Of a stretch of DNA of 64,000 nucleotides, positions 11,855 to 59,464 are shown piece after piece. Where the stretch lies: positions 320,001-384,000 of the forward strand of contig CBDBKE010000003.1 in the NCBI GenBank assembly GCA_965206645.1, in the 5' to 3' direction. Position numbers and translations under genes: made by a program. Numbering within the stretch: the stretch's first letter is position 1; every line of letters starts with the position of its first letter. The notes under the pieces are model-generated. The model had not been told where the DNA came from. It saw nothing but the letters and a program-made list of their open reading frames with translations, and made no database searches. The DNA comes from Terriglobia bacterium. GTDB taxonomy: Bacteria > Acidobacteriota > Terriglobia > JAJPHL01 > JAPKYU01.

Positions 11855-11857
11855 GCC

Positions 11858-45548: not shown

Positions 45549-45672
45549 CTGTTCCGGGCGAAAGGTAAAACGGAAACTGGCGAAAATGGTTGTTCTACCG
45601 GTCCGGCCCTCATTATATCTTGCCGAGCAACTCTATCTTGCTGAACTAACGTCCCGTTCCCATAATTGGTTG

Positions 45673-46371
45673 ATGACTCGACACCGGCGGCCCAGGCTGC
45701 GGCTCAGGCTAAGGATTCGCGGTTGGGTTGCTTTGCTGGGAGTGGCGCTGTGGGCCTGTGGCGCTGTGGCCGGCGAGAAGGAGCGCCTGGCGTTCCGTGC
45801 CAAGCCGGCGGAAGCCTATCCGGCACGCGACGCGCACGAGGGGTTAATCGCGGCCGCCGAACCGTTCGAGACCCGCCAGAAAGCTAAACCGGTTTTCGGA
45901 AAGCCCAATCTGGCGAAAGCGGGCATCCTGCCGGTGCTGGTGGTGATTGCCAACACGACGGACAAGACGGTGCGCCTGGATGACCTTTTGGTGCAATTGC
46001 TGACGCGGGACCGGCAGAAGATCGAGCCCACCCCGGCGGAGGTTGTGGTTCAACGGCTGACGGGGAAAGGGAAACAGCCGCGCCGAACGGTGCCCTACCC
46101 ACTGCCGCGCTTGCCCGGCGGGTCACGGGCAAACGTAGTCATGGAAGTGCTGGTTCACGAGTTCAACATGCGCCTGCTGCCGCCGGAGTCCACGGCTAGT
46201 GGCTTCTTCTACTTCGAGACCGGGAGTGGTAGGGACTGGCTGTCCGGTTCCAAGCTCTACCTCACCCAGCTTGTCTGGGCCCACAACTCACAGCCGCTGA
46301 TGTATTTCGAAATCAGCCTGGACGACGCCCTTCGCGGCCGACCGCCCTCCAGCTCCGGCCGCAAGCCGTAA
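45673..46371 (+). CDS. Hypothetical exported protein; start uncertain
   Basis: Long ORF with a signal-like N-terminus and typical codon usage. Confidence 0.6.
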   Translation: MTRHRRPRLRLRLRIRGWVALLGVALWACGAVAGEKERLAFRAKPAEAYPARDAHEGLIAAAEPFETRQKAKPVFGKPNLAKAGILPVLVVIANTTDKTVRLDDLLVQLLTRDRQKIEPTPAEVVVQRLTGKGKQPRRTVPYPLPRLPGGSRANVVMEVLVHEFNMRLLPPESTASGFFYFETGSGRDWLSGSKLYLTQLVWAHNSQPLMYFEISLDDALRGRPPSSSGRKP

Positions 46372-46454
46372 CAATGCGCTGATTGCTCTTGAACCCTGTT
46401 GGCTGCAAGCAGGCGCTGGCCTGATGGCAACGATCGCGCCACCGATTTCTTTGG

Positions 46455-46483
46455 TTGACAAGGTGCGGGGTGGGTGCTATAAA
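46455..46483 (+). promoter_or_regulatory. Sigma70 promoter of the HU gene
   Basis: TTGACA-17bp-TATAAA with an extended TG. Confidence 0.75.
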
Positions 46484-46530
46484 CCCGCCGCAATCTGCTT
46501 TACCGCTGTAACAACCAGGAGGATGTCTTC

Positions 46531-46815
46531 ATGAATAAGGGAGACTTGATTGAGCGGGTTTCGAACGATGCTGGCATCAGCAAGGTGCAGGCCAACCGCG
46601 CCCTGGACGCGCTGGTAGAAGGCGTTACCGGCGCTCTCAAGAAGGGAGGCCGGGTAACCCTGGTCGGGTTTGGCACCTTTTCCACTTCTCACCGCAAGGC
46701 GCGCACCGGACGCAATCCACAGAACGGACGGCCACTGAAGATCGCCGCCCGGCGCGTGGCCAAGTTCGCGCCCGGCGCCGAACTGAAAGCCGCAGTCAAC
46801 AGGAGCAAGAAGTAG
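46531..46815 (+). CDS. hup: DNA-binding protein HU
   Basis: MNKGDLI, VTLVGFGTF, RTGRNPQ, FAPGAELK. Confidence 0.96.
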   Translation: MNKGDLIERVSNDAGISKVQANRALDALVEGVTGALKKGGRVTLVGFGTFSTSHRKARTGRNPQNGRPLKIAARRVAKFAPGAELKAAVNRSKK

Positions 46816-46923
46816 CTTCCCACCATTGGGTCGCGGAAGGACGCGCAGAGTCATGCTCTGAGGCGTCGTGCCGCGACCTCTCGCTGGGGAAAATCCCCCT
46901 TCCCCCTCCCTGGCCGCGAGCCA

Positions 46924-47631
46924 TTGGAACAGCGGGTCACCATCGCCGTTCCCGGCGCGGTTCCCGGGGCCGAGCGCGTCTCGGCGGCCTTGGCCGGAGA
47001 GCCCGCCTCACGCACCATCGCCGTGTTTGCCCACGGCGCGGGCAGCGGCATGGATTCCGAGTTCATGCGGGTGTTCCACGACGGCCTGGCTGAGCGCGGC
47101 TGCTTGGCGGTGCGCTTCAATTTCCCTTACAAGGAAGCCAAACGGAAACTGCCAGACCGGCGGCCACTGTTGGAAACCTGCTATCGTGCCGCGGCCGACT
47201 TCGCGCGCGGGCAATCGAAGCTGCCTGCCCCTCGACAGCCGAAAATTGTGCTAGGCGGCAAGTCCATGGGCGGGCGCATCGCCTCCCATCTGGTCGCCGC
47301 CGGCTACCCCGCCCACGCGCTGGTGTTTCTGGGTTATCCGCTCCACCCGCCCGGCAAGCCGCAGCAGATCCGGGACCAGCACCTGTACTCCATTCGCTGC
47401 CCGATGCTATTCCTGTCCGGGACCCGAGATGCCTTTGCCCAAAGGGATTTGTTGGTCCCGGTCGTCGAACGGCTCGCCGGCAGTGGACCCGGACGCCGTG
47501 CCACGTTGGTCTGGATTGAGGACGGAGACCACTCCTTCCGCGTCCGCGGCCGGCCGCAGACACAGGTCTACACCGAAGCGCTGGACACCATCGTTGGCTG
47601 GCTGACGCAGGTACTGAAACCTGAGAGCTGA
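46924..47631 (+). CDS. Alpha/beta hydrolase (KANL3/Tex30-like)
   Basis: AHGAG, RFNFPY, GGKSMGGR, LGYPLHPPGK, GTRD, GDH. Confidence 0.9.
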   Translation: MEQRVTIAVPGAVPGAERVSAALAGEPASRTIAVFAHGAGSGMDSEFMRVFHDGLAERGCLAVRFNFPYKEAKRKLPDRRPLLETCYRAAADFARGQSKLPAPRQPKIVLGGKSMGGRIASHLVAAGYPAHALVFLGYPLHPPGKPQQIRDQHLYSIRCPMLFLSGTRDAFAQRDLLVPVVERLAGSGPGRRATLVWIEDGDHSFRVRGRPQTQVYTEALDTIVGWLTQVLKPES

Positions 47632-47651
47632 GACCTGAGAGGTGGGACCGA

Positions 47652-48182
47652 CTACTTGGCGCCTTTGAAAGCCTTCGCCAGTACCCCGGCCACGGAAATC
47701 ATAGTGGTGAGGTCTTTGATGGTGAAATCAGGACCCGATGCCGGGGCAGTCTTGCCCTTGCGAGAGACCTGGACCACCCCTACCGCCTTGCCATCCACCA
47801 CCAAAGGTGCGCTCATGATCTTCTGAATGGGGCTGCCCTTGGTCTCGGAGCTCAGCTCGATGGCCTCAAAAATTGTCGGGTGTTTTTGGGCGGGGAAATT
47901 GTTGATCATCTCCGGCCGCTTCTCGCGTACGGTCCGCACCGCCAGCGAGGCGGTGCTGGTCATCGGGATGCTGCCCACTTTTTGCAGCTTTAACGGATAG
48001 ATAAAGGAAAGCACGGCCCCGCTGTGGGTCAGGTGCAGGACGGCCACTTCGTCCAATTTCACAAGGAAGGCCTTGGAGAGTTCGGCGACAATTTTTCCCA
48101 GAACCTGCCCGGACAGACCCCCTCCGGACTTGGCGGCTTCATCAACCAGTCTGGACAACCCTGCAGTCAGTGCGGCACCCAT
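47652..48182 (-). CDS. Stand-alone GAF-domain protein
   Basis: IMSAPLVVDGKAVGVVQVSRK...DFT--DL GAF signature. Confidence 0.7.
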   Translation of the reverse strand: MGAALTAGLSRLVDEAAKSGGGLSGQVLGKIVAELSKAFLVKLDEVAVLHLTHSGAVLSFIYPLKLQKVGSIPMTSTASLAVRTVREKRPEMINNFPAQKHPTIFEAIELSSETKGSPIQKIMSAPLVVDGKAVGVVQVSRKGKTAPASGPDFTIKDLTTMISVAGVLAKAFKGAK

Positions 48183-48217
48183 AATGTCCTCCCGGGGAGC
48201 GCCCCATTTTATAGCGG

Positions 48218-48251
48218 AAAGAAGCTACCAAACAAAAGAAGCTACCAAACA
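48218..48251. repeat. Perfect 17-bp tandem duplication upstream of the GAF gene
   Basis: aaagaagctaccaaaca twice. Confidence 0.85.
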
Positions 48252-48322
48252 AGGGTAACTGATCATCCGCAACCGTGCCCTTCCGGGGTGGTAGGCCCCG
48301 GGGGGCTCATCGGGTGTTGACC

Positions 48323-49177
48323 TCAGTCGAAAACAACGGTCTTGTTCCCGTAAGTCAACACTCGATGAGCCAGATGCAGGCGCACTGCGCGGGCCAGAAC
48401 CACTCGTTCCAGATCCTTCCCCTTGCGAATCAGATCCTGGACTGAGTCACGGTGGCTCACGCGCGCGACTTTCTGTTCAATGATCGGACCTTCATCCAGA
48501 TCCATTGTCACGTAGTGAGAGGTGGCTCCGATCAGCTTCACGCCACGTTGGAAAGCCTGGTGGTAGGCTTGGCCCCTCGCAAAGGCCGGAAGAAAGGAAT
48601 GGTGGATATTGATGATCCGATTGGGAAAGGCGGCGACGAAATCCTCGCTCAGAATCTGCATATAGCGGGCCAGCACGATCAGGTCAATTCCTCTGGCCCG
48701 CAGCTCGCCGATCTCCCTGGCCTCCTGTTCCTTCTTGCTGGCCGCGGTAATGGGGAAGTGAAGGAACGGGATTCCGAACTCCTGCGCCACCGCATTGGCC
48801 TCCAGATGATTGCTGACGACCATTGCGATCTCGGCCTGGAACTCGCCGGCCCGGTGCCGGAGCAGTAGATCCTGGAGGCAATGCAGCATCCTGGAGGCGA
48901 AGATCGCGAGTTTCGGCGCGTCATCGCTGAAGTGGACCTCGAACTGTATCTGGTGCTCTTGGGCCAGCGGCTGAAAACGCGCGGCGATTTGCGCGCGTGG
49001 GATCTCGAACCCCTCCAGATCCCATTCCATCCGCGCCAGAAACACCCCGGTCTCGAGATCCGTGTGCTGGTCGGCGTCCAGAATGTTACCGCCGTGGCGA
49101 AAGATGAACCCGGAGATCTTGGCCACGAGCCCCTTCTGGTCGGGGCAGAAGACTAACAACGTCGCGGTCTCGCGCAT
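48323..49177 (-). CDS. purU: Formyltetrahydrofolate deformylase
   Basis: CPDQKGLVA ACT domain, LARYMQIL, INIHHSFLP, GATSHYVT, LDEGPIIEQ. Confidence 0.96.
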   Translation of the reverse strand: MRETATLLVFCPDQKGLVAKISGFIFRHGGNILDADQHTDLETGVFLARMEWDLEGFEIPRAQIAARFQPLAQEHQIQFEVHFSDDAPKLAIFASRMLHCLQDLLLRHRAGEFQAEIAMVVSNHLEANAVAQEFGIPFLHFPITAASKKEQEAREIGELRARGIDLIVLARYMQILSEDFVAAFPNRIINIHHSFLPAFARGQAYHQAFQRGVKLIGATSHYVTMDLDEGPIIEQKVARVSHRDSVQDLIRKGKDLERVVLARAVRLHLAHRVLTYGNKTVVFD

Positions 49178-49904
49178 GGGGACGGTTCGACAGATGCTTC
49201 CTCAGATCGTCTCGCGAGGAAACGATGTGCTCGGTCATGGCCCGCCGCGCTTCCTCGGGGTCACCTTTCTTGAGGGCCCGCAAGATTTTCTTGTGCTCGG
49301 CGAGGGAAACAGCGGCTCGCCGGGTCGAGTCGCTGGCCGGGGAAGACGCCAGGGTCTCCCGGATAAAGGCCTGCAGATAGCCCCGGATGGTGGTCAGCAG
49401 GTTGTGTAGGATCGAGTTCTGCGTCGCCCGGGCGATGCCCAGGTGGAACCGCAGGTCACTTTCCAGGTATTTCTCTGGATCGGCCAGCGATTTCTCCATG
49501 CCCTGAAGGGCCACTTCGATGTCGCGCAGGTCTTTCTTCGTTGCCTTCTGGGCAGCCAGATCGGCCGTTTGCGACTCCAGCATCAACCGGGTTTCCACCA
49601 GGTCCTCGACTACCTTGCGGTCCAGCAGCAGGCCCCACTGAAAGACCCGCTCCAGATAGCGGCCCGGGTCGAGGCAAACGAAGGTTCCTTCGCCCGGGTG
49701 CGATTCCAGGATCCCCATCACCGAGAGCGACCGCAGTGCCTCCCGAACCGACGTCCGGCCCACGCGGAACTGCCGGCACAGCTCCTTCTCTGAAGGGATG
49801 TGGTCGCCCGGCTTGAAAACGCTGCTCGCAATCAGAGCAGTGATCTGCTCGACGATGCCCTCGCTGAGCAACCTGCGGGCGACTGGCTGGAGAGACTCAA
49901 CCAT
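49086..49904 (-). CDS. GntR/FadR-family transcriptional regulator
   Basis: PSEKEL...VGRTSVREAL wHTH; FCD domain with D-RFH, TQN, EH--IL. Confidence 0.93.
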   Translation of the reverse strand: MVESLQPVARRLLSEGIVEQITALIASSVFKPGDHIPSEKELCRQFRVGRTSVREALRSLSVMGILESHPGEGTFVCLDPGRYLERVFQWGLLLDRKVVEDLVETRLMLESQTADLAAQKATKKDLRDIEVALQGMEKSLADPEKYLESDLRFHLGIARATQNSILHNLLTTIRGYLQAFIRETLASSPASDSTRRAAVSLAEHKKILRALKKGDPEEARRAMTEHIVSSRDDLRKHLSNRPHARDRDVVSLLPRPEGARGQDLRVHLSPRR

Positions 49905-49926
49905 CGGCTTTACACCTTCCTGGGGC

Positions 49927-49978
49927 TTTACAGCTTGCTGCCAACTGGGGTATACTAAGGTGTCAGCTTAGCAGACAA
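49927..49978. promoter_or_regulatory. Divergent promoter region with a candidate operator
   Basis: + strand TTTACA(49927)-18bp-TATACT(49951); TGTC-N9-GACA inverted repeat at 49961-49977. Confidence 0.5.
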
Positions 49979-50041
49979 GCAGGCAGGATGTCAAACGTGA
50001 CTCCCTGCCGGCCGGCACTCTCTGCCAGGAGGATCCTGACT

Positions 50042-50674
50042 ATGGGCCGAACGCTGGATCTGGGTAACCGCGTCGAACTGGTCTCGATGGATCCCCATTG
50101 CCAGGACATCACCGTTGCTCTCTATCGCCAGGATGGCGGTCACCAGCCGGAATACTTGGTGCACAGCTACAGCCGGCTGGAAGGCGTTCGCGAACGAGTC
50201 GAATTTCTGGCCCGGGCGCTCGAGAAGCTGGCGGGGGCGGAGCGGACGGACGCTCGGCTCCGCTTCTCCTGTGGCTCGGCGCACCAGGCTGGGGCCAAGC
50301 GTGGTTTTCTGGAGGCATGCAAGCTGCCCTCCACCGCGGCGCTCGAACCGAGGCCGCTCTCCGCCCTGGACAAACGGTCGGGCCGAAACATCGCCGTGGC
50401 GAGTCTGGGGGCGGGCGTCTACCAGCTGACGGCAGACGGGCCCAAGGAAGACAAGTCTAAGCGGGTGGAAGCCATCGCAGCCGGATTCCGGAAGCTAGCC
50501 GAGATGTCACCGGTGGAAGGCAGCGCCGACCGGGTGGCATTCCCCTGCGGGCAGATCCACGATGCGCTGGTCGGGTTGTTGCTTGTTCGCGCCTTGAACC
50601 TGCGCGCGGTGTTGCGCGAAGATGAGGCAGCTACCTCCCGTGGCCAGCTGGTAGCACCGAGCCAGCAAAAGTAA
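50042..50674 (+). CDS. Hypothetical protein with internal duplication (two F-x-CG-x-x-H motifs)
   Basis: First ORF of the methyl-transfer operon; FSCGSAH and FPCGQIH. Confidence 0.8.
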   Translation: MGRTLDLGNRVELVSMDPHCQDITVALYRQDGGHQPEYLVHSYSRLEGVRERVEFLARALEKLAGAERTDARLRFSCGSAHQAGAKRGFLEACKLPSTAALEPRPLSALDKRSGRNIAVASLGAGVYQLTADGPKEDKSKRVEAIAAGFRKLAEMSPVEGSADRVAFPCGQIHDALVGLLLVRALNLRAVLREDEAATSRGQLVAPSQQK

Positions 50675-50690
50675 TTCTAAGGAGAATGAG

Positions 50691-51728
50691 ATGGTCGGAC
50701 CAATGACGAGTCGCCAGCGCGTGCTGGCCGCCCTGCGTCGTGAGCCGGTGGACCGCACGCCGGTCTGCAACCCCACCTCGGTAGCCACCGTGGAGCTCAT
50801 GGACCTGGTGAACGCGCCCTTCCCGGACGCCAACCGCAAGCCGGAACTGATGGCGCGGCTGGCCGCCACCGGACACACCGAGCTCGGCTTCGACACCATC
50901 ATGCCGGTCTTCAGTATCATTCAGGAGTCCTCGGCGCTGGGTTGCAAGATCCAGTGGGAGCAGAAGGACAACTGGCCGACGGTGAGAATGCGCGAGCCGA
51001 TCTTCCAGAAGCCGGAAGACATCCGGATTCCCCCGGACCTGCTGAAGCATCCCGACATGCAGTGCGTGATCCAGGCCATCAAGATTCTGCGCCGGGAGTT
51101 CGGCGACGAGGTGGCGATCGTTGGTAAGACGATGGGGCCCTGGTCGCTGGGCTACCACTGCTTCGGCGTGGAGCCGTTCCTGCTGCTGTCGCTGGATGAC
51201 CCGGGTGCCACCAAACAGTGCCTGGAGAAACTCAAGCAGGTCACCATTGACTTTGGCCTGGCCCAGATCGAAGCCGGCGCCGACGCCCTCACCCTGCCCG
51301 ACCACGCCACCGGCGACCTGGTCAGCGGCGAGTACTACCGGCGCTACCTGCGCGACATGCACATCGAGTTTGTCGAGCGGATCCCGATCCCGCTGATTAT
51401 GCACATCTGTGGCCACACGGTGGACCGGATGGAGTACATCGCCCAAACCGGATTCGCGGCGTTTCACTACGACTCCAAGAACCAGCCGGCCGAGTCGATG
51501 GCGATCATGAAGAACCGCATCTCGCTGGTGGGAAATATCAACAATCCGGAGACCCTGTATTCGAGGGGCCCTGAGCAAGTCCGGCAAGAGGTTTGGAAGA
51601 ACCTGGACGCGGGCGTGCAGTTGGTGGGCCCGGAGTGCGCCATCCCGCTGCAGACTACGGTCGAGAACCTCAAGGAGATTCCCGGGGCCGTGCGCGAGTG
51701 GCACCGGCAGCACGCCTCGGCCAACTAG
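50691..51728 (+). CDS. MtaA/CmuA-family (URO-D fold) corrinoid-dependent methyltransferase
   Basis: MTSRQRVLAAL, GPWSLG, QIEAGAD, Zn motif H-I-C-x75-C (MHICG...GPEC), GNINNP; AAGGAG RBS. Confidence 0.9.
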   Translation: MVGPMTSRQRVLAALRREPVDRTPVCNPTSVATVELMDLVNAPFPDANRKPELMARLAATGHTELGFDTIMPVFSIIQESSALGCKIQWEQKDNWPTVRMREPIFQKPEDIRIPPDLLKHPDMQCVIQAIKILRREFGDEVAIVGKTMGPWSLGYHCFGVEPFLLLSLDDPGATKQCLEKLKQVTIDFGLAQIEAGADALTLPDHATGDLVSGEYYRRYLRDMHIEFVERIPIPLIMHICGHTVDRMEYIAQTGFAAFHYDSKNQPAESMAIMKNRISLVGNINNPETLYSRGPEQVRQEVWKNLDAGVQLVGPECAIPLQTTVENLKEIPGAVREWHRQHASAN

Positions 51729-51749
51729 GAACAGGCTTAGGAACACACT

Positions 51750-52499
51750 ATGGCGGAACTCAGCGACATTTCCAACGACTTCATCCGGCAGGAGATCGAA
51801 GAGTACATCGAGCGGCCGGAGGAGCGGAAGCGCATGATTGACACCTTCGCGAAGGTCAAGCCGAAAATGCAGACCATTGCGGCGGCGCTGATTGACGGCG
51901 ACAACGGCACGGTAGATCAACTGACCAAAGAGGCGCTGGAGGAGGGGACCGTGGCGCTGGAGGTGATGGACGACGGCTTGATTGCCGGCATGGGAATTGT
52001 CGGCATCAAGTTCCGGGAGAACTTCATCTTCGTGCCGGAAGTTCTGGCCTGCGCGCGGGCAATGAAGGCGGGCATGGCCTACATTGAGCCCATCCTGTCG
52101 GCCTCCGGCGTTAAGCCCATTGCCAAGGTCGTCATGGGCACCGTCAAAGGGGACCTGCACGACATCGGCAAGAACCTGTGCATCATGATGTTGCGAGGCA
52201 CCGGCTTTGTGGTGATTGACCTGGGAGTGGACACCTCGGCGGACCGGTTCATTGAGGCCGTCGAGGAGCACGAGGCCCCCCTGATGGGGATGTCCGCCCT
52301 GCTGACCACCACCATGCCCAACATGGGCAAGACGATCGAAGCCTTCATTGACGCCGACCTGCGAGACAACGTGAAAATCATGGTCGGGGGCGCGCCTGTC
52401 ACGCAGGACTTTGCCGACGACATGGGAGCCGACGGTTACGGCAAGGACGCAATGGCGTGTGTCGCGCTGGCCAAGCGGCTGATGGGGGTGGCGGTCTAG
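51750..52499 (+). CDS. Corrinoid-binding methyl carrier protein
   Basis: Cap domain (GLIAGM-IVG-KF...FVPEVL), GTVKGDLHDIGKNL (DxHxxG), MSALLTTTM, MVGGAPVT. Confidence 0.96.
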   Translation: MAELSDISNDFIRQEIEEYIERPEERKRMIDTFAKVKPKMQTIAAALIDGDNGTVDQLTKEALEEGTVALEVMDDGLIAGMGIVGIKFRENFIFVPEVLACARAMKAGMAYIEPILSASGVKPIAKVVMGTVKGDLHDIGKNLCIMMLRGTGFVVIDLGVDTSADRFIEAVEEHEAPLMGMSALLTTTMPNMGKTIEAFIDADLRDNVKIMVGGAPVTQDFADDMGADGYGKDAMACVALAKRLMGVAV

Positions 52500-52515
52500 G
52501 CCTTGACGGGACGCC

Positions 52516-52758
52516 ATGCAAAAAATCGACCAACACGAGTACCGAAAACGCCTGGACCGGCTCACCGAAATCCTGACGGGGATCTCGGCGCGCGCCGACG
52601 AGCTGTCTCTCCGGCGTTGCCCTTACAAGAATCGCCTGGACCAATGCACGGCGCAGTTTGGCTGCCGCAATAAGCGCAAGCCCAAGCAGGCTGGGGAGCT
52701 GCCCGTGTGCGCCAGCGACGACAAGCTGGATTACCGAAAGGCGTGGGAAACTGCCTGA
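52516..52758 (+). CDS. Small Cys-rich hypothetical protein (80 aa)
   Basis: Fills the gap between the corrinoid and RACo genes; RCPYKN...QCTAQFGCRN...VC. Confidence 0.75.
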   Translation: MQKIDQHEYRKRLDRLTEILTGISARADELSLRRCPYKNRLDQCTAQFGCRNKRKPKQAGELPVCASDDKLDYRKAWETA

Positions 52759-52781
52759 CCCCGGGAACCTCCTGAACAAAG

Positions 52782-54413
52782 ATGGCCCACATCTGCTACG
52801 ACAGCAGCCGCTGCAGCCTGGAGCGCGGTCGAACCGTCTTCGACTATGCCGACGAGCTCGCCATCCAGGTGCCCACCTCGTGCGGCCGTAGCGGTGTCTG
52901 TCACGAATGCATCGTGGAAATCAAGCGCGGCCTGGAAGCCCTGAGTCCGCGCAGCGAGGCGGAAGACTTCCTGCGGGAGAACTTCCGGCTGGCCTGCCAG
53001 GCGACAATCCAAAATCTCGACATTGACGTCGAGTTCGCACTGCTCCGCCGGCGTCCGAAAATCCTGACCCGTTCCGCGCCCACCGCGGTTGAACTGGATC
53101 CGCTGGTCACTCGCGCCGGAGATAAAGTCCTCTACGACGGCGCGGTGATCGACGACTACCGTGGCCACCTCTACGGCTTGGCCATCGACCTGGGCACCAC
53201 CACCATCGTCATCGAGCTGGCGGATCTGGAGACCGGCGAGGTGGTTTGCCTGGTTTCGCTCGAGAACCCGCAGCGCTTCGGCGGCAGCGACATCATGCAC
53301 CGCATCTCCTACGATTCGGGCCAGTACCAGGGCGAGTTACACAAAAGCGTGATCCGGGAGGTCAATTACGAGCTGAAGGAGATGTACCGGGCGCTGGGGA
53401 TTAGCCGCCACCAGATTTATGAGACGGTGCTGGTGGGCAACTCCACCATGCGCGACCTGTTTTTCAACCTGGACGTGCAGTCGATCGGCCAGCGGCCCTA
53501 CAAGTCCCTGGTCGAGCAGGAATACCTGGCCGGGAAGCGGCAGACGACCGCGCTGATCGAGCTGGCCCATCGCCTGGGCCTGCTGACACATCCGAAGGCC
53601 CGCATCTTCGGGGCTCCCTTGGTGGCCAGCCACGTAGGCGCCGACGTGGTTGCCGACCTGGTAGCGATCGATATCGCCTCGCAGCGCGACCCGGTGATGT
53701 TGGTGGACGTGGGCACCAATACGGAGGTGGTGGTGGGCCATGCCGGCCGACTGTTGGCCGCCTCCTGCCCCGCCGGTCCGGCCTTTGAGGGCGGCCTTAT
53801 CAAGTACGGGATGACCGCCGGCGACGGAGCTATCGAGGCACTCGAGCTGAATGGGAGCGCCTGGAAGTACCGCACCATCGGCGAGGTTCCACCCACGGGA
53901 ATCTGCGGCTCGGGCCTGATTGATTTGCTTGCCGAGCTGCGCCGCCACGAGCGGATGACACCCAAAGGTGTCTTTGCCGACAAGCAACGCGAGCTCCCTA
54001 TCGTGCCGGAACACGGCATCACTTTTTCCCGCCTGGACGCCAGCAATCTGGCCCAGGCCAAAGGCGCCAATTACTGCGGCCAGTTTATTGTGCTGCGCCA
54101 GTTCGGCGTGTGCCCGGCCGACATCAGCCGGCTCTACCTGGCCGGCGGCTTCGCCAACTACATCAACGTGCGGAATGCGATCGAGATCGGGTTCCTGGCG
54201 CCGGTACCTGAGGACCGCGTGGTCAAGGTAGGCAACTCCGCGGTCGCCGGAGCGCGCCAGATGCTGCTCTCACGCAGGAAACGCCGCGCCATCGAAGAAC
54301 TGGTTCAGCGCATCGAGCACATTGAGCTCGAAATGACCCCCGACTTTTTTGACGTCTTCGTCGAAGCCTGCCAATTTAAGCCCATGCCGGCGGCGTTCGG
54401 AGGCAAGACGTGA
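52782..54413 (+). CDS. ATP-dependent reductive activator of corrinoid proteins (RACo/DUF4445, ASKHA) with an N-terminal 2Fe-2S domain
   Basis: SCGRSGVCHEC...RLACQ, AIDLGTTT, NPQRFGGSDIMHRI, VGNSTM, DVGTNTE, AGPAFEG, GICGSG, LAGGF. Confidence 0.93.
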   Translation: MAHICYDSSRCSLERGRTVFDYADELAIQVPTSCGRSGVCHECIVEIKRGLEALSPRSEAEDFLRENFRLACQATIQNLDIDVEFALLRRRPKILTRSAPTAVELDPLVTRAGDKVLYDGAVIDDYRGHLYGLAIDLGTTTIVIELADLETGEVVCLVSLENPQRFGGSDIMHRISYDSGQYQGELHKSVIREVNYELKEMYRALGISRHQIYETVLVGNSTMRDLFFNLDVQSIGQRPYKSLVEQEYLAGKRQTTALIELAHRLGLLTHPKARIFGAPLVASHVGADVVADLVAIDIASQRDPVMLVDVGTNTEVVVGHAGRLLAASCPAGPAFEGGLIKYGMTAGDGAIEALELNGSAWKYRTIGEVPPTGICGSGLIDLLAELRRHERMTPKGVFADKQRELPIVPEHGITFSRLDASNLAQAKGANYCGQFIVLRQFGVCPADISRLYLAGGFANYINVRNAIEIGFLAPVPEDRVVKVGNSAVAGARQMLLSRRKRRAIEELVQRIEHIELEMTPDFFDVFVEACQFKPMPAAFGGKT

Positions 54414-55957
54414 ACGAATCGCCCGCACCCACGCGGCCATCTTCCGGAGCTTGGAGCAAGCGCACATTCCGGCACCTGCTGGAGGAAACCTCCAGTTTCG
54501 TCACCGTGGTCGAGCTGGTGACTTCCCGGGGGCTGATCACGGAGCGCAGCGGTCGCCGCATTCTGGAAATGGCGCGATTGCTGGCCGAGCATCCTCGCTT
54601 CCACGCCCTGAGCATCACGGACAACCCCGGCGGCCACGCTATGCTCAGCGCCGACACCCTGGGTACGGACCTGATCTCCCGCGGCCAGGAGGTCATCATC
54701 CACCTCTCCTGCAAGGACTGGAACCGCAACGCCCTGGAGAGCCGCGGCTGGAAGCTGTCCAGCGAAGGTTTTCACAACGTGCTGGCACTCTCGGGCGACT
54801 ACCCGGTGACCGGACACCAGGGTCAGGCCGCCCCGGTCTTTGACCTTGATTCGGTCAGCCTGCTGGAAATGTTCTCCCAGATGGAGGGGACCAAATTTTT
54901 CCTCGGCTCGGTGGTGAACAATTACAAGCGGTATGAGGGCGAGGTGATGCCGCAGTACTTCAAGCTGGCCAAGAAGATCGAGTCTGGCGCCCGCTTCATC
55001 ATCAACCAGATCGGCTACGACGCGCGCAAGCAGGATGAGCTACTGCGCTACATGGCGCTGAAGGGACTCCAAGTGCCCGTGCTGTGCAATGTATACGTCC
55101 TCAGCGCCTCCGCCTCACGCTTCTTCCACGCTGGCCGGATTCCCGGCGCCGTGGTCACCGACGACCTGCTGGCACTGGCCGAGGAGCGGGGAGCCTCGCC
55201 CGACAAGGGCAAGGCATTCTTCCTGGAGTTCGCCGCCAAGCAGTGCGCCATTGCCCGGGGACTCGGCTATCGGGGGGTCTACCTGGGGGGGCATATGCGG
55301 TTCGAAGACTACGAGCGGATCCTCCAGATCTGGGACAGCTTCGGCGACAATGACTGGAAGGAGTTTGCCCGCCAGATTCGTTTCGCTCAGCCTGAGGAGT
55401 TCTACTACTTTGAGCCCGATCCAGAGACGGGCCTCAGTTCCTCGGAGGTCAACCGCGAGTACTTACGCTCGAAAGCCTCGCCGGCCGGCGCGCCGCTCTC
55501 CTACCGGCTCAACCGCCTGGTGCACGGGAAGGTATTCGAGAAGGACAGTTCGGGGTTCCGGGCAGGAAAGGCGCTCTACCAGTCGGTGGAGGGGTCGCCG
55601 CGGATCCGGAAGACGCTACACGCGGCTGAGCACGCGTTCAAAATCCTCGCCTTCGACTGTCAGGACTGCGGCGACTGCTCGCTCCCGGACATTGCCTACC
55701 TCTGTCCCGAGTCGCAATGCGTGAAGAACCAGCGCAACGGTCCCTGCGGAGGAACACGGCAGGGCCTGTGCGAAGTTGGAGAGAAGGAGTGCATCTGGAG
55801 CCGCGCCTACCAGCGCCTGAAGGCCTATGGCGAGGAGGAGCAGATGCTCGACCGGCCGGTGGTCTTCCGCAATGGGGCGCTGCGAGGCACCAGCGCCTGG
55901 GCCAATGCCTTCCTCGAGCGGGATCATAACGCCAGCAAGAAGCCGAAGGAGCAATGA
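54410..55957 (+). CDS. metF: Methylenetetrahydrofolate reductase fused to a C-terminal MetV-like Cys-rich domain
   Basis: ITDNPGG, HLSCKDWNR, NVLALSGD, KKIESGARF; C-terminal CQDCGDC...CPESQCVKNQRNGPCGG...CEV...CIW. Confidence 0.9.
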   Translation: MNESPAPTRPSSGAWSKRTFRHLLEETSSFVTVVELVTSRGLITERSGRRILEMARLLAEHPRFHALSITDNPGGHAMLSADTLGTDLISRGQEVIIHLSCKDWNRNALESRGWKLSSEGFHNVLALSGDYPVTGHQGQAAPVFDLDSVSLLEMFSQMEGTKFFLGSVVNNYKRYEGEVMPQYFKLAKKIESGARFIINQIGYDARKQDELLRYMALKGLQVPVLCNVYVLSASASRFFHAGRIPGAVVTDDLLALAEERGASPDKGKAFFLEFAAKQCAIARGLGYRGVYLGGHMRFEDYERILQIWDSFGDNDWKEFARQIRFAQPEEFYYFEPDPETGLSSSEVNREYLRSKASPAGAPLSYRLNRLVHGKVFEKDSSGFRAGKALYQSVEGSPRIRKTLHAAEHAFKILAFDCQDCGDCSLPDIAYLCPESQCVKNQRNGPCGGTRQGLCEVGEKECIWSRAYQRLKAYGEEEQMLDRPVVFRNGALRGTSAWANAFLERDHNASKKPKEQ

Positions 55958-57006
55958 AACCTCAAGGCTTGAACAAAGAGTTCGTTGTCATCGGGGAAAA
56001 CATCCACACGACCCGCGTCTTGCGCCGCGCTGGCAAGCTGGTCACCACCACTCCCAGCGGCGAGGAGGCGGTCCGCTACATCAGCGCGAGCGGAGAAACC
56101 CGCTACCTGATCATCCCGAAAGAGGTCAAGCGCCAGCAGGACTATGAAGAGGGACGCGTCAAGCACGTGGCCATCGCGGTGCGGGCGGCCATGTCGGGCG
56201 CCGAGCCCGCCGCCAGCGAAGGAATGCAGTACCTGCGCGCGCTGATGGCGCGGCAGCTCAAAGGCGGCGCCGACTTCCTGGACTTGAACGTGGACGAGGT
56301 CTCCCTCTACCCGGACAAACAGCTCGAAGCGATGCGCTGGCTGGTGCGCGCCATCGAACCGCTGGCGCCGGTGCCGCTCTCGATTGATTCCTCCAATCTG
56401 GACACCATTCGCGCCGGCATTCAGGCCTGCTCGGGGAGCACAGGCCGGCCCATGCTGAACTCCGCCTCGCTGGAACGGCTGGAGGCGTTGGACCTGGCCC
56501 GGGAGCGAAACCTGTCGGTGATCGTCACGGCCTCTGGCTCCAGCGGCATGCCCCAAAACACCGAGGAGCGAGTGGCCAACGCCTCCCAGGTGATCGATAC
56601 CGCCCTGGCTAAGAGCCTCCCCATCGAGGACCTTTATGTGGACGGCCTGGTCTTCCCCATCTCGGTGGACGGTCAGTTCGGAAACCATTACCTGGAGGCG
56701 ATCCGCCAGCTGCGTGAGAAGTACGGCGAGAAGATTCACCTGACGGGCGGCTTGAGCAACGTGTCGTTTGGGCTGCCCTGCCGCCGGCTGATCAACGAGG
56801 CGTTCATCAATCTCTCCGTGGAAGCCGGCGCCGACTGCGGCATCGTGGACCCGGTGGGTAACGACCTGAACCGGGTGTTCGCAGCCGACAAAAATTCCCA
56901 GCCCTATCAGCTGGCCCAGGACATGCTGCTGGGACACGATCGCAACTGCAAAAACTTCCTCCGCGCCTACCGCAAGGGGGAACTGGAGCCGGTCACGGCT
57001 AGGTAG
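55954..57006 (+). CDS. Pterin-binding methyltetrahydrofolate:corrinoid methyltransferase (AcsE/MetH folate-domain-like)
   Basis: VIGENIH, GADFLDLN, LSIDSS, MLNSAS, GGLSNVSFGLP. Confidence 0.9.
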   Translation: MKPQGLNKEFVVIGENIHTTRVLRRAGKLVTTTPSGEEAVRYISASGETRYLIIPKEVKRQQDYEEGRVKHVAIAVRAAMSGAEPAASEGMQYLRALMARQLKGGADFLDLNVDEVSLYPDKQLEAMRWLVRAIEPLAPVPLSIDSSNLDTIRAGIQACSGSTGRPMLNSASLERLEALDLARERNLSVIVTASGSSGMPQNTEERVANASQVIDTALAKSLPIEDLYVDGLVFPISVDGQFGNHYLEAIRQLREKYGEKIHLTGGLSNVSFGLPCRRLINEAFINLSVEAGADCGIVDPVGNDLNRVFAADKNSQPYQLAQDMLLGHDRNCKNFLRAYRKGELEPVTAR

Positions 57007-57014
57007 GGAAACAC

Positions 57015-57281
57015 ATGGCCAAATACCAGATCCTCTACTGGAAGCATATCCCGGCGCAGGTGAAGGTGTCCGCCGAGGGCCAGAGAACTCTGTCGCGGCC
57101 GATGCCCGACCGGTTCCAGGAAGAGATTGACAAGATCGCCATGAGGGAAGGCTTGGCCGGCACCGACGACTATCTGAATCAGTGGAACTGGACGCCGAAA
57201 CAGGAACGGCCGGGCACTCCAGAACAGGTGGCTGAGGCCCTGATTCAGGAACTGGAGCAGCAGGTGGAGTTCACTGAATGA
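57015..57281 (+). CDS. 'Virulence factor' family small protein (Virulence_fact-like)
   Basis: ILYWKHIPAQV...RFQEEIDKIAM-EGL-GTDDYL-QW. Confidence 0.8.
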   Translation: MAKYQILYWKHIPAQVKVSAEGQRTLSRPMPDRFQEEIDKIAMREGLAGTDDYLNQWNWTPKQERPGTPEQVAEALIQELEQQVEFTE

Positions 57282-57290
57282 TTAGGTCCG

Positions 57291-57351
57291 TTGTCATTCC
57301 AAGCGGAGCGAGGGATCTGCTTTACGACTGGTTTCGGTCGCGACGTGACAA
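57291..57351. repeat. REP-like element (copy 2) bounded by TTGTCA/TGACAA
   Basis: ttgtcattccaagcggagcgagggatctgc...gtgacaa. Confidence 0.5.
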
Positions 57352-57373
57352 AGGAAGCCTCCTTGGGCTTCCT
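57352..57373. terminator. Hairpin after the methyl-transfer operon
   Basis: aggaagcc-tccttg-ggcttcct; no T-tract. Confidence 0.4.
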
Positions 57374-57419
57374 CCGGAGTTGAAGAGCCATTTCGAATCT
57401 CGGATTTCGGATTGAAAAG

Positions 57420-58688
57420 TTGAGAAGGAGTTTCTTTCATTCGACGGTCCCCGCCGCGTCCCTTTTATTCTTCCTGGCCCTCAGTGTTCTGGCCTGCGGT
57501 CCAGCAAAGCCGAAATCCGAAACGCAAAATCCGAAATCTGAAGTGCGCAATCCACAATCGAAAGACTGGCTGAGTCAGGCGCGCCAAATTCACCGCCGCG
57601 CTATTGTCATTGACAGCCACGCCGACACGACGCAGAGGTTGCTAGAGGAGAACCTGGACCTGAGCCTCCGTGACCCGGAAGGCCACCTGGACCTGCCCCG
57701 GATGCGCGAGGGAGGCCTGGACGCCGTCTTCTTCTCCATCTATGTGCAGCCGAAGCACAAACCCCATTACCTGCGCCGCGCCCTGGAGCAGATTGACGCC
57801 GTGTTGGATCAGGTGGAGCGCCACTCGCGCGAGCTGGAACTGGCGCGCACGGCGGCCGACATCCGCCGCATCCATCGCGCCGGCAAGCTGGCCGCGCTGA
57901 TGGGAGTTGAAGGCGGACACGCCATCGAAGACAGGGCGGGCGTGCTCGACGTCTTCTATCGCCTGGGTGTGCGCTACATGACCCTGACCTGGTCCTTCTC
58001 CACCTCCTGGGCCGGCTCCTCCGGAGATGCCGGCCGCAAGCGCGGCTTGAACGAGAAGGGCCGCGCCATCGTTGCCCGCATGAACCAGCTGGGCATGATG
58101 GTGGATGTCTCCCACGTCTCCGACCAGACCTTCTATGACGCGCTCAAGGTGGCGCGCGCCCCGGTGATCGCGAGCCACAGCTCCTGCCGCGCCCTCGCCA
58201 ATGTGCCGCGCAACATGAACGACGCAATGATCCAGGTGCTGGCTGAGAACGACGGGGTGATCCAGATCAATTTTTACTCCGCGTTCTTAGACTCCGACTA
58301 CGCAGCAGCCTGGAGCAAGGTGAGCGCTGAGTTCCGGCGGGAGCGGCGCGAACTGGAGCAGCAGTGGCAGGGCGACCCGGCCCGGCTGGTCCGCGAGGAG
58401 CGCCGCCTGGAGCTGGCCTACGACGCCCGCCTCCCCCGGCCGGGCGTGGAACGAATCGCCGACCACATTGACCACGTGGTGAAGCTGGTGGGCGTGGACT
58501 CCGTGGGGCTTGGCTCGGACTTCGACGGTGCAACTATGCCGCGCGGCATGGCGGACGTCTCCCAGTTGCCGCGCCTCACCGCCGAACTGCTGCGGCGCGG
58601 CTACTCGGAGCCGGACCTGGTAAAAATTCTCGGGGGCAACCTACTGCGCGTCATGGAGCGCGTCGAACAGGTTGCATTGAAGCCGTGA
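57420..58688 (+). CDS. Membrane (renal) dipeptidase, M19 family, probable lipoprotein
   Basis: VLAC lipobox; [33 protein letters not shown]. Confidence 0.93.
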
Positions 58689-58755
58689 TGAGTGGATGAT
58701 TGCAGATCGGTTGCACTGCCAATCGTCAATGATCAATTTCGGATTCGGAGGAACT

Positions 58756-59322
58756 ATGAAAAGAGGGCTGATCCTTGCAATCGCGTTGGGCTTGGCAACC
58801 AGCGCGCTGGCGCAGAAGAAGCGCTCCCCGGGTGTTTACGCCACCTTTCACACCTCGATGGGCCAGATCGTCTGCGAGCTTTATGAGAAGCAGACCCCGA
58901 AGACGGTGGCCAACTTCATCGGCCTGGCGACCGGCACCAAGGGGTGGACTCACCCGGTAACCAAGGCCAAGAAGAAGACGCCGCTCTACAGCGGAACCAT
59001 CTTTCATCGGGTCATCCCCAAATTCATGATCCAGGGCGGCGACCCCGCAGGCAACGGCACCGGTGGACCCGGCTACAAGTTTGCAGATGAGATTGTGCCG
59101 GTCTTGAAGTTCGAGCGCGCGGGCCGGCTGGCGATGGCCAACAGCGGGCCGGACACCAACGGAAGCCAGTTCTTCATCACCGAAATTCCCACCCCGCACC
59201 TGAACGGCAAGCACACCATCTTTGGCCAGGTGGTCAGTGGACAGAGCTTGGTGAAGAAAATTGCGCGGACGAAGAGCAGGGTAAAGCTGGCAAAGGTCAC
59301 CATCGAGCGCATCGACAAATAG
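58756..59322 (+). CDS. Cyclophilin-type peptidyl-prolyl isomerase, exported
   Basis: Signal peptide; [35 protein letters not shown]. Confidence 0.96.
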
Positions 59323-59464
59323 CCAGGGGGCCCGGCCCAGCGGCGGAGGCTCCGAGCCGCGCGCGTCAGCAAGCGGTTCTGCAGGGCCGGGAATCACCGC
59401 TCCCTCATGGTCGCGGCTCGGATCGTGGTTGAAGCGATCGAGCCGCGAGTCTTCCGGCAGCCTG

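Follow-up and report, generated by a model that had tools for sequence, protein, structure and literature searches.

The DNA studied here (the window) is a 64,000-nt stretch of the Terriglobia bacterium assembly GCA_965206645.1, contig CBDBKE010000003.1, positions 320,001-384,000 of the forward strand. Open reading frames, together with Pfam and NCBIfam searches, delineate an operon of eight tightly packed genes at 50042-57281 on the plus strand, facing two genes on the minus strand:

48323..49177, minus strand: purU (Formyl_trans_N and ACT domains, TIGR00655)
49086..49904, minus strand: GntR/FCD transcription regulator (Pfam GntR and FCD)
49905..50041, no strand: control region between the divergent genes, including a promoter-like site (sequence inspection)
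50042..50674, plus strand: 210-aa protein without a family, predicted to partner the MtaA-like enzyme as a subunit
50691..51728, plus strand: MtaA/CmuA-family zinc methyltransferase of the UroD fold (URO-D, TIGR01463)
51750..52499, plus strand: corrinoid (cobamide-binding) methyl carrier protein (B12-binding and B12-binding_2)
52516..52758, plus strand: 80-aa four-Cys protein (no Pfam or NCBIfam family)
52782..54413, plus strand: RACo-type ATP-dependent reductive activase (RACo_C_ter, Raco_middle, Fer2)
54410..55957, plus strand: MetF-MetV fusion (MTHFR and DUF5981)
55954..57006, plus strand: pterin-binding methyl-THF:corrinoid methyltransferase, MeTr/MT2/MtgD-like (Pterin_bind)
57015..57281, plus strand: PF13769 protein, named "Virulence_fact" in Pfam

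All ten genes lie where the first-pass annotation had placed them, including the FadR-type regulator and purU from which the operon diverges, and the profile searches agree with the families it named, with the frames at 49988-50674 and 52516-52758 remaining without a family. The overlaps that it reported among the RACo, metF and AcsE-like genes can be read in the sequence letters, as GTGA between RACo and MetF-MetV (54410-54413) and ATGA between MetF-MetV and the pterin methyltransferase (55954-55957); the remaining gaps within the operon are 8-23 nt. The frame of the 210-aa gene could formally begin at 49988; homologues align from the ATG at 50042, which has an AGGAGG 8 nt upstream and is, as judged from the sequence, most likely the start.

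The gene order, for which a survey across genomes had been suggested, is conserved in related loci labelled as Acidobacteriota, Latescibacterota, Poribacteria, Gemmatimonadota, Actinomycetota, Lentisphaerota or Planctomycetota, at least seven phylum labels in all. We kept 80 loci, of which 63 extend at least 7.9 kb downstream and 72 at least 2.5 kb upstream. The 63 loci contain the corrinoid gene in 58 cases, the four-Cys gene in 57, RACo in 56, the pterin methyltransferase in 45, the PF13769 gene in 38 and MetF-MetV in 36, an arrangement that is far from chance. The eight genes are confirmed as a real and regulated operon for vitamin-B12-dependent methyl transfer between folate and a small molecule. 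No transporter family recurs in the related clusters, and a homocysteine S-methyltransferase gene is inserted in 13 of the 63, linking the cassette to methionine synthesis over some of its range. It occurs patchily, in 6 of 41 relatives and 2 of 30 genera, and many carriers come from peat or soil, judging by record titles. Full-length MetH is found in none of the 6 cluster-bearing relatives versus 24 of the 35 others, which hints at a role in methionine synthesis; in other phyla, among the matches listed, 13 of 34 cluster-bearing genomes also encode full MetH.

The methyltransferase matches URO-D (2.7e-65) and TIGR01463 (mtaA_cmuA; 254.3 bits, cut-off 235.4), and it does not reach the NCBIfam equivalog cut-offs for MtaA and MtbA. 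All 28 of 28 sequences share its zinc ligands, His238, Cys240 and Cys316, and the H-x-C...C pattern aligns with that of the nearest solved structure, Methanosarcina mazei MtaA (4ay7; E 1.7e-54, 188 bits); at E<=0.001, the PDB search returned MtaA and uroporphyrinogen decarboxylases only. Identity is 78-87% across the 80 loci, and the methyltransferase and the carrier together show a mean column identity of 87%. Their genes are adjacent in 58 of the 63 loci, and four metagenome proteins of 607-634 aa are natural fusions of an MtaA-like and a corrinoid part, 76-83% identical to the methyltransferase. Methyl transfer from CH3-THF to a thiol amounts to about -30 kJ/mol, so that the path from a thioether to THF runs uphill. 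For the homologue MtpA, methylation of cob(I)alamin by its thioether is called "thermodynamically unfavorable", having been observed only when the substrate was highly concentrated (10.1101/548461). The available text of PMC10418091 treats His-Cys-Cys zinc sites as the mark of thiol methyltransferases, which normally serve in methyl acceptance.

The 210-aa partner protein is undescribed and is conserved among many soil and sponge bacteria. It consists of two pseudo-repeats with an F-x-C-G-x-x-H motif in each, both of which are missing in 2 of 28 aligned homologues, so these Cys and His residues cannot be essential everywhere. No Pfam or NCBIfam family matches it; scans of 28 homologues gave no family common to two of them (five families were hit, each by a single homologue, with a best E of 0.014), and of its 1518 relatives at E<=1e-5, the 120 matches listed include no Pfam domain, the named ones all being hypothetical. 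The AF2 model (pLDDT 88.6) had 0 Foldseek matches at E<=0.001, and its best VIA match (Z 6.9) is not convincing. The gene lies upstream of the methyltransferase gene in 79 of 80 loci, and in 5 full-flank Poribacteria loci the two occur without corrinoid genes. Complex prediction for the pair scored 0.85 (runs 0.87, 0.85 and 0.84), versus 0.32 for the best of 3 controls; among solved complexes 58 of 80 attained that mark, and among mismatched pairs 2 of 110. Contacts agree between runs to at least 76%, the partner pLDDT is at least 86, and the predicted interface comprises methyltransferase residues 34-41, 91-93 and 320-325, beside the zinc ligand Cys316. Hence, we predict that the protein acts as a partner subunit to the MtaA-like enzyme.

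The corrinoid protein (B12-binding 5.4e-27, B12-binding_2 4e-21) carries the DxHxxG motif as DLHDIG at residues 135-140 and stays below the NCBIfam equivalog cut-offs for MtgC, MtbC and MtaC. RACo (RACo_C_ter 2.5e-67, Raco_middle 4.1e-39, Fer2 5.1e-8) combines an N-terminal plant-type 2Fe-2S domain (C34-x5-C40-x2-C43-x28-C72), a middle domain and an ASKHA ATPase. The four-Cys protein, with the pattern C35-x8-C44-x5-C50-x14-C65 invariant in 27 of 27 aligned homologues, has no family and no PDB relative in a profile search; modelled by AF2 (pLDDT 75.2) as an N-terminal helix and a Cys-rich knob, it probably assists the corrinoid/RACo core as a metal or Fe-S accessory. The PF13769 protein (3.7e-16), the sole copy in the genome and without a solved relative, is presumably a small accessory travelling with corrinoid/RACo systems; on a Gemmatirosa plasmid, its gene directly follows a corrinoid gene, beside RACo.

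In the folate arm, MetF-MetV (MTHFR 3.4e-13, residues 53-279; DUF5981/MetV 1.5e-26, residues 399-481) is a divergent methylene-THF reductase with a C-terminal eight-Cys domain (Cys 417, 420, 423, 432, 437, 446, 454 and 461). Besides it, the genome has a single MTHFR, a housekeeping enzyme fused to a homocysteine methyltransferase (C4:889234-890955). The pterin methyltransferase (Pterin_bind 2.4e-18) scores 191.5 bits against PRK07535, below the cut-off of 259, and its nearest solved relative is 4o0q (E 2.6e-36), deposited as a "dihydropteroate synthase", which we take to be the MT2 of the Desulfitobacterium hafniense O-demethylase; AcsE/MeTr 2e7f ranks behind it at 9.1e-26.

The regulator (GntR 5.9e-20, FCD 8.6e-29) falls below the cut-offs of all NCBIfam equivalogs, and the last 92 nt of its frame overlap purU (TIGR00655 379 bits, cut-off 286; Formyl_trans_N 3e-39, ACT 3.8e-9). 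Of the 72 related loci that extend at least 2.5 kb upstream, 54 have a divergent GntR/FCD gene and 4 an adjoining purU. The promoter-like site, TTTACA-18-TATACT at 49927-49956, is not significant alone, as this pattern occurs once in 48000-58000 with 1.2 sites expected by chance; the short GTATAC palindrome that spans its -10 hexamer is a possible GntR operator.

As the first-pass annotation had held, the genome has an aerobic oxidase (COX1, 3056-4798, minus strand, 1.2e-146), and family searches find no MttB/MtaB-type or homocysteine-binding genes in the cluster. MttB (PF06253) is absent from the whole genome, which leaves the MtaA-like pair as the only candidate for a third methyltransferase. 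The route from CH2-THF to formate that had been drawn is borne out in its parts, with PurU adjacent, FolD encoded outside the window (C1:216866) and formate-dehydrogenase-like genes in the genome; Fhs was not found, which leaves PurU as the sole step detected that turns formyl-THF into formate. MetE is present and MetH was not found. The only pterin-binding and MetH-type cobalamin-binding modules in the genome are those of the cluster, and the homocysteine domain lies at C4:889234-890094. CbiC and CobS, for corrin synthesis, were not found (genome 97.9% complete), and the sole cobalamin riboswitch lies ahead of a TonB receptor gene rather than metE. In an organism that keeps MetE and lacks cobamide synthesis, the module would be accessory and work only with imported B12.

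We give an even chance to the reading of this GntR-controlled operon as a modular cobamide-dependent demethylase feeding CH3-THF, where the direction, the substrate and what the three small proteins do are our inference. The RACo activase would keep the corrinoid carrier as Co(I) at the expense of ATP, probably with help from the four-Cys protein. The His-Cys-Cys zinc methyltransferase, in complex with the 210-aa protein, would transfer the methyl group of a small membrane-permeant compound to Co(I); the pterin methyltransferase would exchange it between carrier and THF, and the MetF-MetV paralogue would interconvert CH3-THF and CH2-THF, with the PF13769 protein riding along. FolD could then yield formyl-THF, from which PurU would release formate for oxidation to CO2 by formate dehydrogenase. 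The donor may be a methyl halide or a methylated sulfur or selenium compound; since thioether donors are thermodynamically uphill, halomethanes or the reverse direction remain candidates. The catabolic direction is suggested by the divergent regulator in 54 of 72 loci, by the adjacent PurU, as with purU-folD divergent from cmuA on pCMU01, by FolD and formate-dehydrogenase-like genes without a detected Fhs, by the proximity of the pterin methyltransferase to 4o0q, presumably a demethylase MT2, and by MetF-MetV being a second MTHFR, like MetF2 beside mtgD in Ruegeria pomeroyi. In the available part of that work, MetF2 is the protein most induced on methylated osmolytes (PMC12478193). We counted against the demethylase reading the thiol-type zinc site with its uphill thioether chemistry, the MetH pattern among relatives together with the homocysteine methyltransferase in 13 of 63 loci, the adjacency of PurU in just 4 of 72 loci, and the loss of the partner Cys/His motifs in 2 of 28 homologues.

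The flow might instead be reversed, which we consider unlikely: the pterin methyltransferase would use CH3-THF made by MetF-MetV to charge the corrinoid protein, from which the MtaA-like enzyme and its partner would pass the methyl group to a thiol or selenol. Homocysteine is one conceivable acceptor, which would make the cassette a modular B12-dependent methionine synthase; others are sulfide, methanethiol, selenide or another thiol. The cluster has all five activities of MetF plus MetH, the zinc site is that of MtaA, and the high column identity of methyltransferase and carrier fits a central function. The lack of full MetH in the cluster-bearing relatives points the same way, but it does not extend to the 13 of 34 genomes of other phyla noted above, the extra homocysteine methyltransferase in 13 of 63 clusters would be redundant, and a housekeeping MTHFR is already present. 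MetE without a B12 riboswitch does not imply a B12-dependent isozyme, and the distribution is patchy. Furthermore, a GntR/FCD regulator with an adjacent PurU is typical of catabolic loci. Thermodynamics, for its part, favours transfer from methyl-corrinoid to a thiol, as far as the available text goes (10.1101/548461).

Still less probable, in our view, is a dual-use hub, with the corrinoid protein, pterin methyltransferase and RACo also serving methionine synthesis with the MTHFR-fused homocysteine domain and the MtaA-like pair as donor module in the place of MtgB. In R. pomeroyi, the available account has MtgC and MtgD needed for both glycine betaine demethylation and methionine synthesis (PMC12478193), and the Terriglobia genome has its only pterin-binding and MetH-type cobalamin modules in the cluster. 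Among the matches listed, 11 of 34 other genomes have a homocysteine methyltransferase beside the pterin methyltransferase of the cluster, with full MetH in 1 of 11 versus 12 of 23, although these kin are not independent. Here, however, the homocysteine domain lies outside the cluster, and MetE is present and not B12-regulated. An acetogen-type O-demethylase for methoxylated aromatics or O-methyl sugars shares the four-component layout, is consistent with the origin of many carriers in peat or soil and would suit a pterin methyltransferase closest to the presumed D. hafniense MT2. We nevertheless consider it highly improbable: the enzyme is far closer to MtaA (188 bits), its PDB matches at E<=0.001 are confined to MtaA and uroporphyrinogen decarboxylases, and its zinc triad is invariant in the 28 sequences, whereas known UroD-type O-demethylases, in the available part of PMC10418091, replace one or both zinc cysteines.

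Literature searches found no description of the cassette. The first-pass view that the arrangement matches no characterised system holds for the substrate-side pair but not for the core, which has an aerobic analogue, MtgC/MtgD/MetF2/RamA of R. pomeroyi (PMC12478193), so that only the pair is uncharacterised. As far as the available texts describe them, R. pomeroyi MtgB-MtgC-MtgD-(MtgE)/MetF2/RamA and the split MetH of Phaeobacter inhibens (PMC12478193, PMC5764234) share with our locus an aerobic host, a separate corrinoid protein, a pterin methyltransferase beside a second MetF, an ATP-dependent reductive activase and, over some of the range, a connection with methionine synthesis. Unlike in R. 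pomeroyi, all parts lie in one operon with a GntR regulator, the donor module is an MtaA-family zinc enzyme with the 210-aa protein rather than MttB-type, the activase, of the RACo type, carries a 2Fe-2S domain, MetF has a MetV domain, and four-Cys and PF13769 proteins stand where R. pomeroyi has DUF1638.

Like cmuA on pCMU01 of Methylorubrum extorquens CM4, the locus pairs a UroD-fold H-x-C...C methyltransferase with a corrinoid module and has purU divergent from the methyltransferase gene, and both enzymes are TIGR01463 by name. However, the two parts are fused in CmuA and separate here, identity to the CmuA methyltransferase domain is 23% (41.6 bits), and no partner protein, RACo or four-Cys protein was seen in 12.6 kb around cmuA. 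The methanogen enzymes MtaA, MtbA, MtsA and MtpA include the closest relative in sequence and structure (4ay7), with an identical zinc triad, and MtpA, in the available report, binds its corrinoid protein in a complex and has a thioether/thiol pair as its substrates (10.1101/548461); our enzyme differs in falling below the MtaA and MtbA cut-offs, in its bacterial host with a haem-copper oxidase, in coupling to THF instead of coenzyme M, and in its candidate obligatory extra subunit. With the O-demethylases of acetogens and Desulfitobacterium (MT1, corrinoid protein, MT2, activating enzyme), it shares the four-component logic, an MT2-like pterin methyltransferase and a RACo-like activase, but its MT1 is His-Cys-Cys without the O-type ligands, the host is aerobic, and MetF-MetV and PurU are attached. 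Finally, the type 1 mlp clusters of Kountz & Balskus (PMC10418091) have MtaA-like UroD His-Cys-Cys enzymes, a corrinoid protein and a bacterial activase, with methyl-sulfur or methyl-selenium compounds proposed as substrates. As described in the available part of that paper, they contain two or three Mlp paralogues and no THF methyltransferase and are confined to obligate anaerobes, whereas the Terriglobia cluster combines a single methyltransferase with a THF arm in an aerobic host.

The operon in the window is real, serves cobamide-dependent methyl transfer and is conserved in a wide range of genomes. Its core belongs to a type that has by now been described in aerobes; the uncharacterised part is its substrate module, a methyltransferase with a new partner protein. 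All the genes that the first-pass annotation had listed for this region were recovered by open reading frame, Pfam and NCBIfam analysis, and the GTGA and ATGA overlaps it described can be read directly in the sequence; the remaining intergenic gaps are 8-23 nt.

Genes of the locus, with the terminal oxidase gene of the same window
48323-49177, minus strand, purU (TIGR00655, 379 bits, cut-off 286)
49086-49904, minus strand, GntR/FCD regulator (Pfam/NCBIfam)
49988-50674, plus strand, frame of no family (Pfam/NCBIfam), gene of the predicted partner protein
50691-51728, plus strand, MtaA/CmuA-family UroD-fold methyltransferase (URO-D, 2.7e-65; TIGR01463, 254.3 bits, cut-off 235.4)
51750-52499, plus strand, corrinoid protein (DLHDIG at residue 135; PF02607 and PF02310)
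52516-52758, plus strand, 80-aa four-cysteine frame of no family (Pfam/NCBIfam)
52782-54413, plus strand, RACo activase (2Fe-2S, middle and ASKHA domains)
54410-55957, plus strand, MetF-MetV fusion (Pfam/NCBIfam)
55954-57006, plus strand, pterin-binding methyltransferase (Pterin_bind, 2.4e-18)
57015-57281, plus strand, PF13769 protein (Pfam)
3056-4798, minus strand, COX1, the "aerobic oxidase" of the first-pass annotation

The partner protein most likely starts at 50042, downstream of an AGGAGG, which gives a product of 210 aa. The MetF-MetV and pterin methyltransferase genes overlap by ATGA, so that the latter adjoins a second MetF. The genes flanking the cluster on both sides (M19 dipeptidase, cyclophilin and OPT downstream; GAF, hydrolase, KdtA and LpxK upstream) look unrelated to it. 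Two frames of the window are irregular. The GntR frame continues for 45 codons beyond the FCD domain and into the first 92 nt of purU (49086-49177); either the two genes overlap in this unusual way, or the tail is due to read-through. Elsewhere, within 11796-13246, the frame of a sigma-54 activator stops in the middle of the AAA+ domain, of which it covers profile positions 2-103 of 168; another frame runs from 12581, so that this gene may be frameshifted or split.

In a collection of one genome per species, a relative of the methyltransferase is encoded in at least 501 stretches (501 of 542 candidates). In the best 80 of these, where the methyltransferase is 78-87% identical, the gene order is kept across seven phylum labels (by row, Acidobacteriota 26, Poribacteria 24, Latescibacterota 21, Gemmatimonadota 4, Actinomycetota 2, Lentisphaerota 2 and Planctomycetota 1), the conservation that the first-pass annotation had proposed to survey. 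Among the 63 of these loci whose downstream flank spans 7.9 kb or more, the corrinoid protein is present in 58, the four-cysteine protein in 57 and RACo in 56; the pterin methyltransferase (45), the PF13769 protein (38) and MetF-MetV (36) are found less often, an absence that is partly apparent because insertions shift genes past the flank in some loci. Inserted genes include a PF02574 homocysteine S-methyltransferase (13/63) and, in Poribacteria only, a PhyH dioxygenase (10/63); at L023:12533-13204 and in nine other Poribacteria loci, this dioxygenase lies with a 227-aa protein of no family between RACo and MetF-MetV. On the upstream side, 79 of 80 loci have the gene for the 210-aa protein ahead of the methyltransferase gene, 54 of 72 have a divergent GntR gene and four of 72 an adjacent purU. 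No transporter family recurs inside the clusters. In six Poribacteria loci (L058, L059, L061, L068, L078 and L082, five of them with the full 7.9 kb flank), the 210-aa protein and methyltransferase genes stand alone, with no corrinoid genes within the flank; the neighbours in L058 are mraW, a penicillin-binding protein, a Mur ligase and cytochrome b.

In a FastTree phylogeny of 86 methyltransferases, the phylum labels require 17 changes, against a possible minimum of 7 and a mean of 47.5 after shuffling, a pattern consistent with several transfers from phylum to phylum, or with MAGs that bear a wrong label. Among 41 relatives, six genomes (three in the genus of the window, three in one genus of another family) encode near-identical or 78-98% identical copies of the methyltransferase, the next best match being 33% identical.

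The methyltransferase is nearest to Methanosarcina mazei MtaA (4ay7, E 1.7e-54), and the zinc ligands of the latter align with His238, Cys240 and Cys316, which are invariant in all 28 orthologues. It passes the subfamily cut-off of TIGR01463 and scores 250.9 against PRK06252 (cut-off 244); the equivalog level is not reached for either MtaA_Meth (234.8, below 400) or MtbA (198.3, below 600). The closest full-length representatives that are not orthologues share 38-51% identity with it and are named "MtaA/CmuA family methyltransferase", automatically, or not at all. A plasmid search detected no close relative, the best matches (23-28% identical) being mostly hemE. According to excerpts of Kountz and Balskus (PMC10418091), the His-Cys-Cys triad marks the S-methyltransferases of the superfamily, O-demethylases replace the cysteines, and UroD-type aryl O-demethylase MT1 proteins carry a carboxylate or a non-ligand residue in place of one or both. 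Given the invariant triad, an identity with the latter proteins was rejected.

The 210-aa protein could not be assigned to a family in any of 28 homologues, and among its at least 1518 relatives, the 120 listed are all without a Pfam domain and "hypothetical" wherever they bear a name. It consists of two pseudo-repeats, each with an F-x-C-G-x-x-H motif that is missing in two of the 28 homologues. Its AF2 model is confident (pLDDT 88.6); Foldseek against the PDB returned no matches at E<=0.001, the best of the 48,161 chains compared by VIA-align reached a Z of 6.9 over half of the model, under the informative level of the tool, and the protein atlas held no usable match. The complex of this protein with the methyltransferase was predicted with a score of 0.85, compared to 0.32 for the best of three controls; 58 of 80 solved complexes attain this mark, as do two of 110 mismatched pairs, counts that are rough since our own alignments were supplied. 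At least 76% of the contacts agree between runs, with a partner pLDDT of at least 86, and the predicted interface brings residues 34-41, 91-93 and 320-325 of the methyltransferase, next to Cys316, into contact with the N-terminal half of the partner. The modelling supports, rather than demonstrates, binding of the 210-aa protein to the methyltransferase.

The corrinoid protein combines the cap and Rossmann B12-binding domains with DxHxxG, and RACo has its three Pfam domains with a four-Cys ferredoxin motif. The closest PDB relatives of the pterin methyltransferase are 4o0q (2.6e-36), named "dihydropteroate synthase" by its depositors and presumably the MT2 of the D. hafniense O-demethylase, and then MeTr (2e7f, 9.1e-26); its score against the NCBIfam domain model PRK07535 is 191.5, under the cut-off of 259. 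For the four-cysteine protein, the protein atlas gave only unnamed clusters and a PDB profile search nothing at E<=1; no solved relative of the PF13769 protein was found.

The first-pass annotation had derived from the locus a route from a methyl donor through methyl-THF to formate, and a search of the genome (97.9% complete) recovered much of what such a route calls for. FolD and MetE are both present, as are formate-dehydrogenase-like genes, one with an in-frame TGA; Fhs and a full MetH were not found. The gene with the single TGA (C4:1408431-1410317, outside the window; alpha subunit-like, 659 bits, just below the cut-off of 666) may encode selenocysteine at this codon. The only MetH-like pieces are the corrinoid and pterin modules of the cluster and a homocysteine domain that shares one 630-aa frame with the housekeeping MTHFR (C4:889234-890955). 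The sole cobalamin riboswitch of the genome (C3:90988-91192, 109 bits) precedes the gene of the best BtuB-like TonB receptor (C3:91529-93394; both outside the window), and no riboswitch reached the gathering score at window positions 44000-64000 or around metE or the MTHFR fusion. Because neither CbiC nor CobS was found, the organism looks like a cobamide auxotroph. From this gene content, cobamides would be imported, methionine would be made without B12, and folate-bound C1 units could be oxidised to CO2.

In the best reading of these data, which we consider about evenly balanced, the operon demethylates a small methyl-sulfur, methyl-selenium or methyl-halide compound, and the methyl group would pass from the donor via the MtaA-like enzyme and the carrier into the folate C1-oxidation route. 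A catabolic role in demethylation is favoured by the GntR/FCD regulator, by PurU as a neighbour in a divergent layout like that of pCMU01 (the plasmid of Methylorubrum extorquens CM4), by the extra MetF and by the proximity of the pterin methyltransferase to 4o0q. The extra MetF resembles MetF2, encoded beside mtgD in Ruegeria pomeroyi, which in the Results of PMC12478193 shows the strongest induction of any protein on methylated osmolytes. The main rival, a reverse, thiol-methylating direction, appears less likely to us. Against a catabolic demethylase stands that thiol-type zinc enzymes usually accept methyl groups and that methyl transfer from a thioether to THF is endergonic by about 30 kJ/mol. 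For MtpA, the abstract of 10.1101/548461 likewise describes methylation of cobalamin by its thioether as unfavourable. It also speaks against this role that MetH is absent from all six cluster-bearing relatives, which represent only two lineages, and present in 24 of the 35 others. Among carriers from other phyla, 13 of 34 have a full MetH, which led us to reject replacement of MetH as the only reading; the cassette is therefore not simply a substitute. A homocysteine methyltransferase lies beside the cluster in 11 of these 34 genomes; because, among the rows listed, MetH occurs in one of these 11 versus 12 of the 23 others, the cassette would then, in some of its carriers, also act as a split methionine synthase, by analogy with MtgBCDE.

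Returning to demethylation, we regard as quite improbable, though of consequence, the possibility that the MtaA-like enzyme works together with its 210-aa partner as a new two-subunit methyltransferase with which aerobic soil and sponge-associated bacteria demethylate volatiles that need no transporter (methyl halides, or methanethiol and dimethylsulfide) and burn the methyl group via folate. If true, climate-active trace gases would have a biological sink that is widespread and so far overlooked, and for methyl halides it would be a cmu-independent sink for chloromethane and bromomethane. The carriers include dominant sponge symbionts as well as peat and soil Acidobacteriota. Knowledge of the substrate would bring a cobamide-dependent step into methylated sulfur, selenium or halogen cycling, give these organisms a B12 requirement, and set right the "methanol/coenzyme M methyltransferase" annotation that these genes receive automatically in metagenome surveys.

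A literature search found no published description of the cassette; related clusters might appear in Dataset S2 of PMC12478193 or among the supplementary tables of PMC10418091. In its carrier, THF methyltransferase and RACo, the cluster agrees with three-component corrinoid systems that have an ATP-dependent activase. It falls outside the type 1 mlp clusters, which in sections of PMC10418091 combine at least Mlp2 and Mlp3 and lack a THF methyltransferase, whereas here one UroD-type gene accompanies a pterin methyltransferase. A different UroD-type methyltransferase is encoded on plasmid 1 of Gemmatirosa kalamazoonensis, a cultured aerobic member of the Gemmatimonadota; the next, 323-aa frame joins a corrinoid protein, 53% identical to that of the window, to a PF13769-like stretch, possibly as a fusion, and RACo and a homocysteine S-methyltransferase follow. 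Because mannonate dehydratase, SDR and glycosidase genes adjoin, this set (5748-13983) could demethylate an O-methyl sugar acid.

CmuA combines methyltransferase and corrinoid domains in one polypeptide, whereas here these are separate genes, and orthologues fused to a corrinoid domain were found in only four metagenome proteins of the protein collection. The methyltransferase is 23% identical to the corresponding CmuA domain (41.6 bits) and is not a CmuA orthologue; the corrinoid protein shares 32-35% identity with the C-terminal part of CmuA. The H-x-C...C zinc motif is common to both enzymes (HICG/HTCT and PECA/PGCD aligned); because the chloromethane enzyme thus shares the triad, it does not separate thiol from halide substrates, and halides stay among the candidates. 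Of the metF, folD and purU genes linked in the Cmu pathway, MetF-MetV is here part of the operon, with PurU encoded next to it and FolD at another site of the genome; purU is divergent from the methyltransferase operon as purU-folD is from cmuA on pCMU01. Directly upstream of cmuA, pCMU01 also encodes a 286-aa "uroporphyrinogen decarboxylase family protein" (3901-4761) with no detectable similarity to the methyltransferase of the window.

Corrinoid methyltransferase systems were long regarded as a trait of anaerobes. The first shown to be important in aerobic marine bacteria, in 2025, acts on glycine betaine, and the MtgBCDE hub or split MetH (R. pomeroyi, P. inhibens) resembles our locus in that MtgD lies beside a second MetF; in the present genome, the other MTHFR is encoded away from the cluster. 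The corrinoid protein scores 193.7 and 170.7 bits against the NCBIfam MtgC models, which are of the anaerobe type (cut-offs 370 and 310). A homocysteine-binding methyltransferase, which in the hub is MtgE, is absent from the cluster here and occurs fused to MTHFR outside it; one lies inside the cluster in the 13 of 63 related loci with PF02574. The hub relies on MtgB, a donor enzyme of the MttB superfamily (PF06253), of which the present genome has no match; by analogy, the MtaA-like pair would occupy the place of MtgB. The cassette is a second aerobic type, with a different and uncharacterised substrate module.
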